Counted from the first letter of the stretch, positions 6,456 to 61,591 are shown. The stretch is DNA of 64,000 bases from Candidatus Woesearchaeota archaeon (GCA_018653365.1 JABIAG010000001.1:352001-416000); one strand, 5' to 3'. The notes: generated by a model from the letters alone, not told the origin. Program-made: numbers and translations.

Positions 6456-8159
6456 ATGGGGGATGAATCTTTGTCGGGAATGAACGCTTCAGTACAACAA
6501 ACATATATTTCTTTAGATGAAAGAGCAGAACAAGTCTATCATAGTATTCTAGAAGGAAGTCCCGAGTTTGCATTGTGGATAACAACTCCAAAACAAATAA
6601 CCTTTAATGATGAACAAAAGATGCAGATATTATTCTCAAATGCGTTAACAGCAGAAATGGCTTTGAAACGTTATGAGGAAGCATTAAGTGCAGCAGCAAG
6701 AAGAACAGGGAACTTTTCAGGAATGGATGTGCCGAGAGTTAGTAAGCTATGTTATGATGCAATAGCACCAAAAGCTGATGAAACAGTTCCTGAGCCAAAA
6801 CCTCGAAGAAAAAGTGAAATAAGTGCAGAAGGCCATTATGCTAACACCGATTTTGAAGCGGCATTAGCAAAACTAACTGTGAGAGGTGCAATAGACCGAT
6901 CAGAATACTTTCGTGGTGATTATAATGGAAGAGCATTTGCAAAGGGTATGGCCGTAATAGATAGTTTAAGATCAAAAAAAGCCATACGAAGAGCACTAAG
7001 AATCGTTGGCGATAACAGTTCAGGAAAAACAACTCTTCTAATGTACCTTGCGACCGTAGCAATAGAACATGGATTGACTCCTTTTTATTTAGATTTAGTG
7101 TACTTAGCAGATCAATATGATGCAATGGCAAAAAGTCCAACTAAGCCAACAAAAGAAGACTGGGCAAAGGTGAATTACAGTCCACAAGCACAAGCAGCAG
7201 ATCTGATCTTATTAGATGGTTGGGAAGGAATAATGAAAAAAGGGGATCCTAAAACAAATCAGGGGGCTCAAAGAAAAGCCCTTGAACTAACTAATGCAGG
7301 TTTAAGTAGAGGAAAAGGAGTTGTAATGGCATATTCCGGAGATGTGGCAAGCTGGGTTAAAATGATTGAAGGATTAAAAATTTTGGGAACCCAACAACCT
7401 GATGAACATTTTAGACATCTGTCAGCAAGAATGTCACGAGCAAGTCGCGCTGAATTACGTTATCCTTCTGTAGAAGAGAGACCTGATTTTATAAAAGATG
7501 CAATCCTTTCACTTACTGCAAGATGTAACGGACAATTAGATGAAGTTGCAGCACATTTGGACGGGATTTTAGGAAGAAATGCTGATCCTGGAACAATCAT
7601 GGCAAATGTGGAAGATCTAGTGGACGAAGCAGATGATGAAGATTGTGAAATAGACTTAGAATTTATCAAAGCAATATTGGGTGATGATCCAATCTTGGTG
7701 GAAGTCCCAGGACAAAGAGAGGATGCTATAAATGCATTAGTATTTAGAACAGCTTTAGACGCTATAGGTTTACCAAAAAGTTATGTGACTGGGAAAGGAC
7801 GAGAACCTACAAGAGTGAGAGCAAGAAATATGTTGTTAGCAGCAAGAAAAGCCTATACTGGTATGACTACTGCCGAACTAGTAGATGATTTACCAATAGG
7901 AAGAGCAACAGTAACACATAGTTTGAATAGTGTGGAAGAACAAGTGGGGGCAAATGACTTAGATGGATTCTTAACTCACATAGGTGCAACTCTTTTCGCA
8001 GCAGGATATAAAGATGTAGAACGAAAACCAATAACTCCTGGAAAAAGAGATAAAAAACAACCAGCTACACAAACAAAACCAGTTAATGCAGGGTCTGGCG
8101 ATCTTGGATTGAGTGGAAATGTTTCAGATGTTAAGGGAGGAAGTATTTTTCGTCGTTAA
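6456..8159 (+). CDS. dnaA: Divergent homolog of bacterial replication initiator DnaA (domains I, II, AAA+ III, HTH IV)
   Basis: Domain I-like EFALWI..N..KRY; YFRGDYN..A (cf. FVxGxxN); Walker A GDNSSGKT; DLILLD; HLSARM (Arg finger); IDLEFIKAIL; domain IV-like GKGREPTRVRARNM...TVTHS. Confidence 0.8.
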   Translation: MGDESLSGMNASVQQTYISLDERAEQVYHSILEGSPEFALWITTPKQITFNDEQKMQILFSNALTAEMALKRYEEALSAAARRTGNFSGMDVPRVSKLCYDAIAPKADETVPEPKPRRKSEISAEGHYANTDFEAALAKLTVRGAIDRSEYFRGDYNGRAFAKGMAVIDSLRSKKAIRRALRIVGDNSSGKTTLLMYLATVAIEHGLTPFYLDLVYLADQYDAMAKSPTKPTKEDWAKVNYSPQAQAADLILLDGWEGIMKKGDPKTNQGAQRKALELTNAGLSRGKGVVMAYSGDVASWVKMIEGLKILGTQQPDEHFRHLSARMSRASRAELRYPSVEERPDFIKDAILSLTARCNGQLDEVAAHLDGILGRNADPGTIMANVEDLVDEADDEDCEIDLEFIKAILGDDPILVEVPGQREDAINALVFRTALDAIGLPKSYVTGKGREPTRVRARNMLLAARKAYTGMTTAELVDDLPIGRATVTHSLNSVEEQVGANDLDGFLTHIGATLFAAGYKDVERKPITPGKRDKKQPATQTKPVNAGSGDLGLSGNVSDVKGGSIFRR

Positions 8160-8214
8160 TCAAAAAGTTTACCAATTAGTTAAATTTAAATAAATTCAAT
8201 ATATTTTCTAATTT

Positions 8215-9183
8215 ATGTATACGAAATATCTTTTTTTAGTGATGTTATTGCTTTGTATAAGTTTTGTTACAGCAGCTGAGAACGCCAATGTATTTCTTAG
8301 TTTGAAAGAGGCAACAACTAATATCGATATTAACAAAGTGGTTGTTTACATAGAAGAAAATGAACAGGTCATGAATAAATATGTTCCTAAAGGAGAAATT
8401 CTAAAATTAAGTCTAGAAAATGGCGAACACCATGTTACAATCAAAGTTGATGACCTAACAACCGAAGGAATAGACTATTTTGCTAAAACACAATTAACAG
8501 TACAAACAAGTCTGATTGAGGGAGTGTTTCTTTACTCTGTAGGTTCATTAAGAGGAATAGTAAAAGACGAACTTGATAATGTAATACCAAATGCTGAAAT
8601 AAAAATCGAATGCGGTTCAGATTATGGATTAAACTTACCTACAAAAGCCGATTCTTTTGGCACATTTAATACCGAAGTACCAATCGGGAACTGTAAGGTT
8701 TTTGCCCGGTCTGAAGAAGCAGTTAGCATGCAAGAATTTGAGGTAAGTAAGGGAGATGTGATTGATCTAGAACTAAATTTGGACAAAGTAAAAAAAGAAA
8801 AATCAAACCTGCTTGCCTGGAGTTTGATTATCTTGCTTGTAGTTATAATTGTTATCTTTCGGTGGAAACCGATTAAGAAAAAAACAAAAAAACCTGAAAC
8901 GATCATTAAAAAAGAGGTAAAATTAGTAGAACGATCAAAAGATGTATACAACACCTTAAAAGAAAAAGAAAAAGAAATAATTGACTTCATATTAGAGAGT
9001 AAGGGAAGTACAACCCAAGCAAAAATACACTATGGCACTGGAATTCCAAAAGCATCATTATTTAGATATGTACAATCATTAGAACAAAAAAATGTTATTC
9101 AAACACAAAAAATTGGAAAGGTAAAAAAAATCAGGTTTACCGACTGGTTTTTAGGTAAAAACACTTCTGAAAACGAACAATAG
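8215..9183 (+). CDS. Membrane-anchored protein with extracellular beta domains and cytoplasmic C-terminal winged HTH
   Basis: Signal peptide, carboxypeptidase-regulatory-like beta region, one TM helix, then wHTH (TTQAKIHYGTGIPKASLFRYVQSLEQKNVI). Confidence 0.8.
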   Translation: MYTKYLFLVMLLLCISFVTAAENANVFLSLKEATTNIDINKVVVYIEENEQVMNKYVPKGEILKLSLENGEHHVTIKVDDLTTEGIDYFAKTQLTVQTSLIEGVFLYSVGSLRGIVKDELDNVIPNAEIKIECGSDYGLNLPTKADSFGTFNTEVPIGNCKVFARSEEAVSMQEFEVSKGDVIDLELNLDKVKKEKSNLLAWSLIILLVVIIVIFRWKPIKKKTKKPETIIKKEVKLVERSKDVYNTLKEKEKEIIDFILESKGSTTQAKIHYGTGIPKASLFRYVQSLEQKNVIQTQKIGKVKKIRFTDWFLGKNTSENEQ

Positions 9184-9230
9184 TTCCACATCGTTCCAAT
9201 CGTTCCACTCAACCTATTTATATAGTTCCA
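9175..9230 (+). promoter_or_regulatory. GTTCCA repeat array around the TATA box of the 9270 gene
   Basis: GTTCCA at 9183, 9193, 9202 and 9225; TTTATATA at 9217-9224. Confidence 0.55.
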
Positions 9231-59978: not shown

Positions 59979-60243
59979 GAAAAGAGAGCGATTAGAGGTG
60001 ATAAGAGACATACTCAAAGTCGTAAATGAATCAGGTAATTCAATTAAGCCCACACCTTTATTACGTAAATCAAATATGTCTACAAAAAGATTCAATGAAT
60101 ACTTTACAGAATTACAAAAAAAAGAGTTAGTAAAAGAAATAATTACAAAAAAAGGAAAAGAAATATCTCTAACAGAAAAAGGAATGCAATATTTGAATAA
60201 ATACTCAATAATAAAAGAATTTGTAAACGAATTTGGATTATAA
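59971..60243 (+). CDS. Winged helix-turn-helix regulator (HTH_45/DUF4364-like)
   Basis: KRERLEVIRDIL, IKPTPLLRKSNMS, LTEKG. Confidence 0.88.
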   Translation: MAKKRERLEVIRDILKVVNESGNSIKPTPLLRKSNMSTKRFNEYFTELQKKELVKEIITKKGKEISLTEKGMQYLNKYSIIKEFVNEFGL

Positions 60244-60289
60244 ACAATTCTTAAAAAACGTTATAAAAGCTAAAACAACCCCCTAATTC

Positions 60290-61591
60290 ATGCTTAAAAC
60301 ACAGTTAACCGTTAATGATTTACAGGCATTATTTGGTCAGAATGAAGTTAGTCAAGGACCTTTGCCTAATCTCAACGGAGACCTAGGTTCAACTTTTACT
60401 AGAACTTATGCAGTTTTAGAAGATCTATGCAGTTTTGCTGCTAGCGAAGCAAAACTTGATTGGATTACTAACCCTCCAAGCGCAAAGAGTGTAATTACAA
60501 GTTTACAAACAAAACTTAGGGGATTAACTCGTTGTTCTGGGGAGGATTCAGTACAATCAAAATTTGAAGGATATACTGATTACTTAGAGGAGGTAATTCG
60601 TGCTGTAGTGCCAAACCCTGTTGAACCAATACTTGCTAAACTTTCTAAAAGACAGGTTTCACCTGCAATGTTGGAAGACACAATATTAGTTAGAGATTAT
60701 GCTGTAAGTATGAGATGTTTTCTTAACTGTTTACATTGCTGTTCCCCTGCAGGACCGGATGGGCCAATGATGGATTTTGATGTTTTTACTGAAAGCTTAC
60801 AAAAGCTCAGATTTCCTATGATGGGTTCTGTTTCCATATCTTTGGGAGAACCTTTAACCTATGAAAGTGGAGATAAAGATTTAGTTGATGTAGTTGAGGA
60901 ATTACTTAAAGTTGGCACCCTTGTGGGAGTTGTTACTTCTACTTTTGGTCGCCCTTTCAAAAGGGTTCTTTCAATATTTGAAAGATTAGAATCATTATAC
61001 AAAAAAACAGGGCTTGTTGCAGTACAGTGTAGTTATGATCTGTTTCGGCCTCTAGCAAGACACAATCTTGAAGCATACATTAAAAGAATGGCACACCTGA
61101 TTAATAATTTTGAGGTGATTGATGGACTAAAAATAACTTCGCATGAAGCAAATAACAATGCAACAAATGATGCCGTAACACAATTAAAAAAGAGAGTTGC
61201 AGAAGAAAGATGGAAAAAACTAAACTTATTTTATACCACTATGTGCCCTACAAGAAATGGTGAAGCATTGTTAAAAGAACATGGGGGAAGAGATTTTCAT
61301 AATGAAAGCTGGCGCAGATCTGGCAAACTTAGGTTTTGGGAGGGTACTGTGCCAGAAATGTATGCTGGATTTACTGTGCAGGCAGATGGTTTAGTCACGC
61401 ACCAAACTTATCAAGAAACCGACATAATAGTACCGTTTGGACTTATCCACTTACACACTGCTAAAGAAATAAGAGATGGTTTTGGCGAGGCAACAGCACT
61501 TTATAGAAAACTTAAATATGAAGATAGCAAAACAACCGTTCAAGCTTTAAGTGAATTAAGAGAACATCAAAAAGAACTTCTTGGATTATAA
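60290..61591 (+). CDS. Divergent radical SAM superfamily protein
   Basis: CFLNCLHC (CxxxCxxC), LGEP, CSYD, late VQADGLV. Confidence 0.65.
   Translation: MLKTQLTVNDLQALFGQNEVSQGPLPNLNGDLGSTFTRTYAVLEDLCSFAASEAKLDWITNPPSAKSVITSLQTKLRGLTRCSGEDSVQSKFEGYTDYLEEVIRAVVPNPVEPILAKLSKRQVSPAMLEDTILVRDYAVSMRCFLNCLHCCSPAGPDGPMMDFDVFTESLQKLRFPMMGSVSISLGEPLTYESGDKDLVDVVEELLKVGTLVGVVTSTFGRPFKRVLSIFERLESLYKKTGLVAVQCSYDLFRPLARHNLEAYIKRMAHLINNFEVIDGLKITSHEANNNATNDAVTQLKKRVAEERWKKLNLFYTTMCPTRNGEALLKEHGGRDFHNESWRRSGKLRFWEGTVPEMYAGFTVQADGLVTHQTYQETDIIVPFGLIHLHTAKEIRDGFGEATALYRKLKYEDSKTTVQALSELREHQKELLGL

Follow-up and report, generated by a model that had tools for sequence, protein, structure and literature searches.

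The window analysed here, a stretch of 64,000 nucleotides (C1:352001-416000), belongs to G000, a three-contig archaeal genome of 1.09 Mb with 34% GC, a completeness of 95% and a contamination of 0.24%, whose order is probably Woesearchaeales (DPANN). Lysine-poor genes, among them a DnaA homologue and a sigma factor of bacterial type, are placed in it among lysine-rich core genes. Genome-wide, such genes form a class with its own amino-acid composition under the codon usage of the core, and their upstream regions share a promoter variant, from which a regulon is predicted. We favour, at a probability of roughly 45%, a co-regulated accessory regulon of about 110-180 genes directed against bacteria as host or prey.

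These genes are real and for the most part monocistronic and leaderless; they are placed singly or in pairs among core genes, and direct repeats of 18-26 bp still bracket a few of them. A distinct variant of the archaeal promoter marks them and would, in this reading, turn the set on together, probably while the archaeon grows on a partner cell. Many of the proteins would act at or in the bacterial cell under arms-race selection, released from whatever holds the archaeon's own proteins basic, and may be exported without any linear signal, for instance across a cell-cell bridge or in vesicles. A smaller part of the low-lysine genes (NrdD/NrdG, MetK and a lysine operon) would be older bacterial acquisitions for internal use.

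Two amino-acid compositions under one codon usage

Gene calls by a purpose-written script gave 1,109-1,118 genes in G000. Among its 703 soluble proteins of at least 120 residues, the logarithm of the lysine-to-arginine ratio, log(K/R), is bimodal, two components with weights of 0.24 (low) and 0.76 (high) beating one by 108 units of the Bayesian information criterion (BIC), and GC content at third codon positions (GC3) is unimodal in the same set. We refer to the low-lysine genes, set by amino acids alone, as the class and to the lysine-rich remainder as the core. An unsupervised two-class model revealed 5.6% lysine, 6.3% arginine, 5.3% isoleucine and 7.5% alanine in the low class versus 12.0, 3.8, 8.0 and 5.5% in the core. 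By strict criteria G000 has 187 class genes, 178 of them non-conserved, which form 90 singles, 25 pairs and 11 longer runs; about 20 lie within the window. Lysine and isoleucine are lowered, tryptophan, glutamine, cysteine, proline and histidine are raised together with arginine and alanine, and the median isoelectric point is 6.0 versus 8.6 in the core. The low class is near an average proteome; it is the core that forms an unusual, basic set. Class genes are crowded at about 220-762 kb of C1 and on C3, and sparse on C2 and in the initial 200 kb of C1, a contig whose cumulative GC skew has its maximum near 490 kb.

The initial annotation had described singly inserted orphans poor in lysine and rich in alanine, arginine, aspartate and leucine. 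Its lysine counts for the sigma factor (4 in 184 residues, 17612-18166) and the transglutaminase-like protein (3 in 185, ATG at 21820) are exact, and the other proteins it named are low as well (DnaA-like 35/567, kinase-like 32/493, GNAT 5/150, 38349 9/137, 54845 10/194, radical SAM 26/433), most neighbouring soluble core genes having 10-15% lysine at a GC3 of 0.16-0.25 in both groups. The rise of alanine and arginine holds, whereas aspartate and leucine are not raised (log ratios +0.04 and +0.03). The split itself is real but extends beyond the eight genes named; NrdD/NrdG and the operon at 41899-45956, for example, belong to it. The clustering of composition against GC3 that it had proposed, run genome-wide, found bimodal composition, no elevation of GC3 and the codon use of the core.

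In numbers, GC3 is 0.226 in the low class and 0.233 in the core, synonymous codon preferences match family by family, and at the first and second codon positions GC is higher in the class (0.52/0.40 versus 0.44/0.31). In GC-richer hosts, GC3 of the low-lysine orphans lies below that of the core. Compared with a GC axis fitted to genes that 16 genomes have in common, the drop of lysine and isoleucine and the gain of arginine exceed the prediction, an excess that is partly circular as the same residues define the class. Phenylalanine and tyrosine are up where the axis predicts a decrease, and glutamine, cysteine and tryptophan are up well past it; the class is therefore not merely the signature of a GC-rich donor. 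Adenine-specific hypermutation was ruled out, third positions of lysine, glutamate and glutamine codons being the same as in the core, and ordinary secretion was rejected as a cause, S-layer and surface proteins being poor in both lysine and arginine, unlike the class.

The placement in Woesearchaeales is suggested by gene content together with the genome sizes of the order, 0.6-2.7 Mb. The nearest relative, G002, is placed in the same genus, with core orthologues about 82% identical, whereas class orthologues are 25-69% identical. For 16 syntenic class pairs, classed on identical columns only, nonsynonymous divergence (dN) is 0.42 and synonymous divergence (dS) 1.03, versus 0.10 and 1.04 in the core, i.e., a dN/dS of 0.40 versus 0.10 and about fourfold faster evolution at equal synonymous distance. 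The class pairs have diverged at their present sites, with selection either weakly purifying or positive. A non-stationary amino-acid model took its exchangeabilities from the core and set core composition at 0 and class composition at 1; the equilibrium was 0.91 for the class (jackknife 0.89-1.03) and -0.08 for 26 fast core genes, and simulations with a truth of 0 yielded -0.19 to +0.03. An equilibrium of 0 was rejected by 55 log-likelihood units in G000/G002, and by 24 in nine pairs of G000 and the AT-richer G001 (equilibrium 0.69). Within this two-genome model a simple amelioration lag is rejected, and the composition seems to be maintained and not to decay, as the initial annotation had supposed of proteins kept apart under codon-matched DNA. 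In single conserved enzymes, such as NrdG, substitutions in G001 do head to the composition of the host core (NrdG has 4.2% lysine in G000, 5.1% in G002, 11.0% in G001). Lysine occupies 5.7% of variable class sites in G000 and 9.5% in G002, which is AT-richer, versus 10.3 and 13.4% in the core; both shift with genome GC, so the class represents an offset over mutation pressure and no ban on lysine. Polarisation of substitutions by G001 as outgroup was not used, being biased by the extreme AT content of that genome.

Flanking repeats of at least 15 bp were found at 4 of 178 class genes and at 0 of 723 core-type genes (p = 0.0015). In the window they bracket the DUF2937 gene; further single genes have perfect direct repeats of 18-33 bp on both sides, overlapping promoter regions, at C1:733136-733423, C1:324180, C1:586344 and C3:17473. 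Some insertions are thus recent and yet matched in codon use, which suggests that similar archaea form the donor pool. A DUF2937 gene is present in 6 of 201 genomes of the order, and two of its four nearest relatives with readable contigs sit amid archaeal-type genes. Gene content at fixed sites turns over fast between relatives. One intergenic position holds a bacterial-type MetK in G000 (C1:330312-331487) and an L,D-transpeptidase in G002 (L067:6903-7607), whose His/Cys motif is intact and which has no signal peptide; it looks like a swappable cassette site.

Recent transfer from GC-rich donors, or mis-assembly or contamination, would agree with the GC-richer first and second codon positions and with the perfect repeats at a few genes. 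GC3 and codon preferences, however, are those of the core, dS of syntenic orthologues equals that of the core, the promoters are archaeal and contamination is minimal. Moreover, the sigma gene occurs on 24 contigs in a similar neighbourhood, and the GC3 of the gene between the perfect 26-bp repeats resembles that of the host, while relatives of this gene lie on archaeal contigs. We consider this explanation highly improbable.

A promoter variant that follows composition

In TATA-aligned upstream regions, a C stands right before the box in 63% of class versus 28% of core genes, an A at box position 7 in 82 versus 57%, and TT about 11-12 bases upstream of the ATG in 68/78 versus 45/49%. A position model separated class and core with a cross-validated area under the curve (AUC) of 0.84 (permutation null 0.50 +/- 0.04), and the signal is present separately in the upstream, TATA and downstream parts (AUC 0.79, 0.71 and 0.80). 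Among orphans only, a promoter score above 1 was reached by 66% of low-lysine but 11% of lysine-rich genes (odds ratio 15, p = 2e-17). Because lysine-rich non-conserved genes have core-like scores, the signal tracks composition and not accessory status. High expression was rejected as its cause: in shared genes the score does not follow the bias for C-ending codons (rho -0.03), which is lowest in the class. An unsupervised split into two promoters put 87 of 106 class genes into one group together with many conserved genes, BIC favouring a single model; part of the core, several ribosomal-protein genes among it, therefore has the variant too, which is no exclusive motif. Outside its training genome, the G000 model reached an AUC of 0.75 in G002 (p = 3e-6), 0.61 in G001 and 0.63 in G003, and it failed to transfer to small samples from four other families.

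Two paralogues of transcription factor B (TFB) are encoded at C1:514084-515001 and C3:17906-18814, 57% identical to each other and each 97-99% conserved in G002. The pair could underlie two promoter variants. A regulon for a life stage or for starvation, active within the archaeon itself and perhaps governed by one TFB paralogue, whose proteins were selected to spare lysine and isoleucine or to evade lysine-dependent modification or proteolysis, would account for the shared promoter and for a lysine-to-arginine shift along whole proteins, signal n-regions included, and a lysine-biosynthesis operon that is itself lysine-poor would suit it. Yet both TFBs have a nearly identical C-terminal recognition helix, the lysine operon lacks the class promoter, and orphan status, the dN/dS of 0.4 and the peptidoglycan-directed and sigma domains are left unexplained. 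In our opinion this regulon is improbable, though far less so than recent transfer.

Members of the class, delivery and host

The members with known partners in bacteria, as judged by predicted domains, are two sigma factors, DnaA, an M23 peptidase (an L,D-transpeptidase in G002), Hanks kinases and a receiver domain. The features of the window are listed in Table 1. The domain calls of the initial annotation stood, namely the ECF sigma factor (above the NCBIfam cut-off), the full-length DnaA fold, the APH/kinase fold, GNAT, radical SAM and, by a weak Pfam match, transglutaminase.

Table 1. Low-lysine genes and associated elements, in positions of the window
Feature	Position	Strand	Remarks
nrdD (begins before the window) and nrdG	1..3265	+	low-lysine, operon-borne, metabolic; no class promoter
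Leaderless promoter of the DnaA gene, class type	6420..6455	+	AATC, TATA box about -30, TT about -12/-11; score 3.8
DnaA homologue, bacterial type	6456..8159	+	full-length, degenerate; class promoter
Promoter of the sigma gene, class type	17575..17611	+	score 3.5
Extracytoplasmic function (ECF) sigma-70 factor	17612..18166	+	4 lysines; regions 2 and 4 intact, no region 3
Transglutaminase-like orphan	21820..22377	+	3 lysines in 185 residues; Transglut_core E 0.001, under cut-off; class promoter, score 3.8
GNAT acetyltransferase, low-lysine	36778..37230	-	PF00583 27.8 bits (cut-off 20.7)
Low-lysine orphan	38349..38762	-	by composition; no Pfam or PHROG match
Low-lysine orphan	39164..39481	+	lipoprotein-like N-terminus; core-type promoter
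APH/protein-kinase-fold orphan, low-lysine	39483..40964	+	Atlas 0.96 to APH clusters, TM 0.43-0.49 by query; no Pfam match
Low-lysine orphan run, operon-like	41899..45956	+	two internal paralogue pairs, E 1e-28 and 1e-9
Two low-lysine orphans	50628..52300	+	class promoter on the first
26-bp perfect direct repeat, left copy	54785..54810	+	probably target-site duplication
DUF2937 gene, low-lysine	54845..55429	-	PF11157 E 8e-29
26-bp repeat, right copy	55489..55514	+	equals upstream half of the promoter of low-lysine gene 55544
Low-lysine orphan	55544..55942	+	by composition
Radical SAM protein, divergent, low-lysine	60290..61591	+	PF04055 E 4e-5, under cut-off; class-leaning promoter

The ECF sigma factor scores 63.8 bits with TIGR02937 (cut-off 42.9) and 36.5 with PF08281 (cut-off 25.7), and matches ECF sigmas of the PDB at E 2e-8. 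Both its D-x-x-Q-D motif and its helix in region 4.2 can be aligned with ECF sigmas of solved structure. It is missing at the syntenic site in G002 and G001. In the order, sigma-70 region 2 was found in 85 of 201 genomes, with up to seven copies, often tandem paralogues; 27 aligned sequences keep the motifs of regions 2.1-2.4 and 4.2 at a median identity of 33%, and their lysine content tracks host GC, from 2-5% up to 16%. Tandem arrays of two to four paralogues are seen in several Woesearchaeales (L106, L115, L121, L130, L089), and in L105 one sigma-70 lies inside a 1,763-residue open frame. In G000 no bacterial RNA polymerase was found; there is a single beta-type polymerase gene and no alpha-CTD.

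The DnaA homologue has an Atlas feature score of 0.96 and a template-modelling (TM) score of 0.56 to DnaA clusters, with the domain order I, AAA+, IV, and is colinear with canonical DnaA at 21% identity (E 9e-4). Walker A and the arginine finger are retained, Walker B has changed from DD to DG and the DHTTV of domain IV to RATV; the Bac_DnaA and Bac_DnaA_C hidden Markov models gave no match. An AlphaFold model from two sequences was poor (predicted local distance difference test 43) and was not used. A syntenic orthologue with 45% identity occurs in G002 only among the genomes searched, and the recognition helix differs between the two. Canonical-looking DnaA genes exist in two genomes of the order (L184:448-1782 in G197, L185:992-2347 in G048), which may be bacterial contigs in the bins. 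A search of 5.8 billion proteins for close homologues of the sigma factor, the DnaA homologue and the DUF2937 protein returned the query alone.

In the run at 41899-45956, divergent from an AbrB/PhoU-like regulator, 41929 pairs with 44005 and 42270 with 45020, and no match to Pfam, PHROG or viral contigs was found. A prophage or viral origin was rejected, with ten window proteins lacking a PHROG match and the 44005 family lacking a viral contig. The radical SAM gene was not found at the syntenic site in G002. Elsewhere in G000 the class includes the M23 peptidase (a stand-alone domain of 190 residues), the receiver domain, the two Hanks kinases and a second, degenerate sigma-70, and in G002 the L,D-transpeptidase (YkuD), a domain found in 20 of 151 genomes of the order; RIO kinases and a VirB4-bearing element of G000 are lysine-rich and fall outside. 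The low-lysine metabolic members MetK and the lysine operon were named by eye from sequence. The operon (C1:560698-565207) encodes an apparent bacterial diaminopimelate pathway with 3.7-5.0% lysine, the G001 version being 37-50% identical and lysine-richer. Further observations concern a glycogen cluster at 25402-32983 of the window (two synthase types, GH57, a very lysine-rich small protein and a debranching enzyme), which is kept in G001; a surface protein of 8,459 residues in G001 (L086-L087, C5:47328-72707), inserted inside the region syntenic to the window; and the mere 12 transfer RNA genes that ARAGORN found in G000 despite its 95% completeness, suggesting many intron-split ones.

Beyond G000 and G002, where the split is clear, genomes were mostly sampled as 60-100 kb stretches; it is significant in G003, G026, G029, G100 and G164. 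G004 enters the search tallies alone, and none of the claims depends on it.

Several results weigh against an arsenal aimed at bacteria. The offset weakens in AT-richer or in other lineages. The split is not significant in the samples of G032, G036, G020, G043, G126, G195 and G070, and log(K/R) is not bimodal in G001. The equilibrium of 0.91 comes from 16 gene pairs of two sequences each, under a site-homogeneous model with gamma rates only. Signal-peptide n-regions of the class also swap lysine for arginine, and the target compartment is no obvious explanation for that. By its sequence the DnaA homologue is a degenerate relative and not a canonical initiator, and a sigma-70 of G000 is degenerate too. 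NrdD and NrdG are ordinary internal enzymes within the class, and the metabolic members (NrdD/NrdG, MetK, lysine operon) carry no class promoter. Pfam annotation of class members was done on the G002 and G003 sets, and 52 of 54 class proteins of G002 had no match. In AT-rich relatives sigma-70 has 10-16% lysine, and lysine-rich sigma-70 and DUF2937 homologues are frequent elsewhere. All cultivated DPANN are reported to have archaeal hosts (PMC11291902).

Delivery adds to this list. The initial annotation had looked to shared terminal signals and secretion loci, and neither was borne out: the best gapped motifs (z 4.6 at the N- and 4.9 at the C-terminus) lie inside the shuffled range of 3.9-4.9, N-terminal hydrophobic stretches are no commoner than in the core (12 versus 11%), and no TatC, contractile sheath or lytic transglycosylase was found in the 95% complete G000, which has one pilus-type ATPase and its sole VirB4 inside its lysine-rich mobile element. 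The defining features of an effector system, an apparatus and a shared signal, were thus not found here. Because direct cytoplasmic contacts are reported for other DPANN (PMC6349945), the lack of a known apparatus is not decisive. According to Castelle et al. (2021), no host is known for any Woesearchaeote, and the reason for an intact sigma-70 without a bacterial polymerase is open (PMC8204110).

A rival reading is that of internal accessory genes drawn from a shared DPANN/bacterial pool, which would arrive singly, take the easiest strong promoter, come under relaxed constraint (dN/dS of 0.4) and keep an average composition. Composition would then follow from site-specific structural preferences and slow amelioration, and sigma and DnaA would be repurposed or decaying archaeal DNA-binding proteins. 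In favour of such a pool are the metabolic enzymes in the class, with orthologues lysine-richer in AT-richer G001, the 9.5% lysine at variable sites of G002, the overlap of the variant with promoters of several ribosomal-protein genes, the lost second Walker B aspartate and variable recognition helix of DnaA, and the quick turnover at fixed sites. Yet the lysine-rich orphans and the VirB4 element are likewise accessory and have core-type promoters and composition; drift towards the core is rejected by the 55 log-likelihood units; third positions are already at or below core GC3, even in GC-richer hosts; and across families sigma-70 retains the motifs by which it binds core enzyme and melts promoters. 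We regard the shared pool as less likely than a regulon aimed at bacteria, although it is the strongest of the rivals. The boldest form of the favoured reading, in which Woesearchaeota would be parasites or predators that pass at least 100 proteins (sigmas, a DnaA decoy, kinases, wall enzymes) into bacteria by an undescribed route, seems unlikely to us, slightly more so than the shared pool.

Relation to known systems

Effector sets of type III, IV and VI secretion and takeover genes of phages, such as phage sigma factors, are dispersed, fast-evolving and lineage-specific, and have a common promoter type. The class is likewise dispersed, fast-evolving and lineage-specific, and shares kinase, acetyltransferase, transglutaminase-like and transcription-factor domains with them. 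It differs in three respects: neither an apparatus nor a chaperone or translocation signal was found, its producer is an archaeon, and the ten window proteins tested have no PHROG match.

Sigma-70 in DPANN is already published, as are peptidoglycan hydrolases in Nanoarchaeota. In its accessible part, Castelle et al. (2021) describe bacterial-type sigma factors (fam00359) in Woesearchaeota, as in our genome, beside archaeal TATA-binding protein and TFB, not mis-binned and with no anti-sigma, and also murein transglycosylases, raising episymbiosis on bacteria as a possibility; these are single families of unclear role there, with no lysine-poor class, promoter variant or separate equilibrium in that part (PMC8204110). 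Peptidoglycan hydrolases are prominent in Nanoarchaeota, 68% of them without a known signal peptide, and are seen as anti-bacterial weapons (PMC12352652). M23 in Nanoarchaeia and the frequent lack of a signal peptide are shared with our case, whereas those enzymes are modular with a wall-binding domain and the M23 protein of G000 stands alone among about 180 co-marked genes. No description of a two-class proteome with a class promoter was found in the literature searched.

What had been scattered oddities now forms one defined class of genes that can be counted, marked by a promoter signature and offering ranked, testable proteins. If the boldest form of the favoured reading is true, the repertoire would be readable from a genome by lysine/arginine ratio and promoter type, would represent the first effector system directed from archaea to bacteria, and would account for the sigma-70 genes of DPANN. 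Even if the explanation is mundane, two amino-acid equilibria under one codon usage matter for the compositional models that place DPANN in the tree and for the dating of transfers.

Further parallels are amelioration (Lawrence and Ochman 1997, as cited in PMC11293555) and prokaryotic orphans. As in amelioration, third positions are host-like while first and second differ; as with prokaryotic orphans, the genes are lineage-restricted, set among core genes and of host GC3. Under amelioration, fast genes are expected to drift to host composition; the class described here, with its equilibrium near its own composition, does not, whereas a second, lysine-rich orphan class in G000 does follow that expectation.

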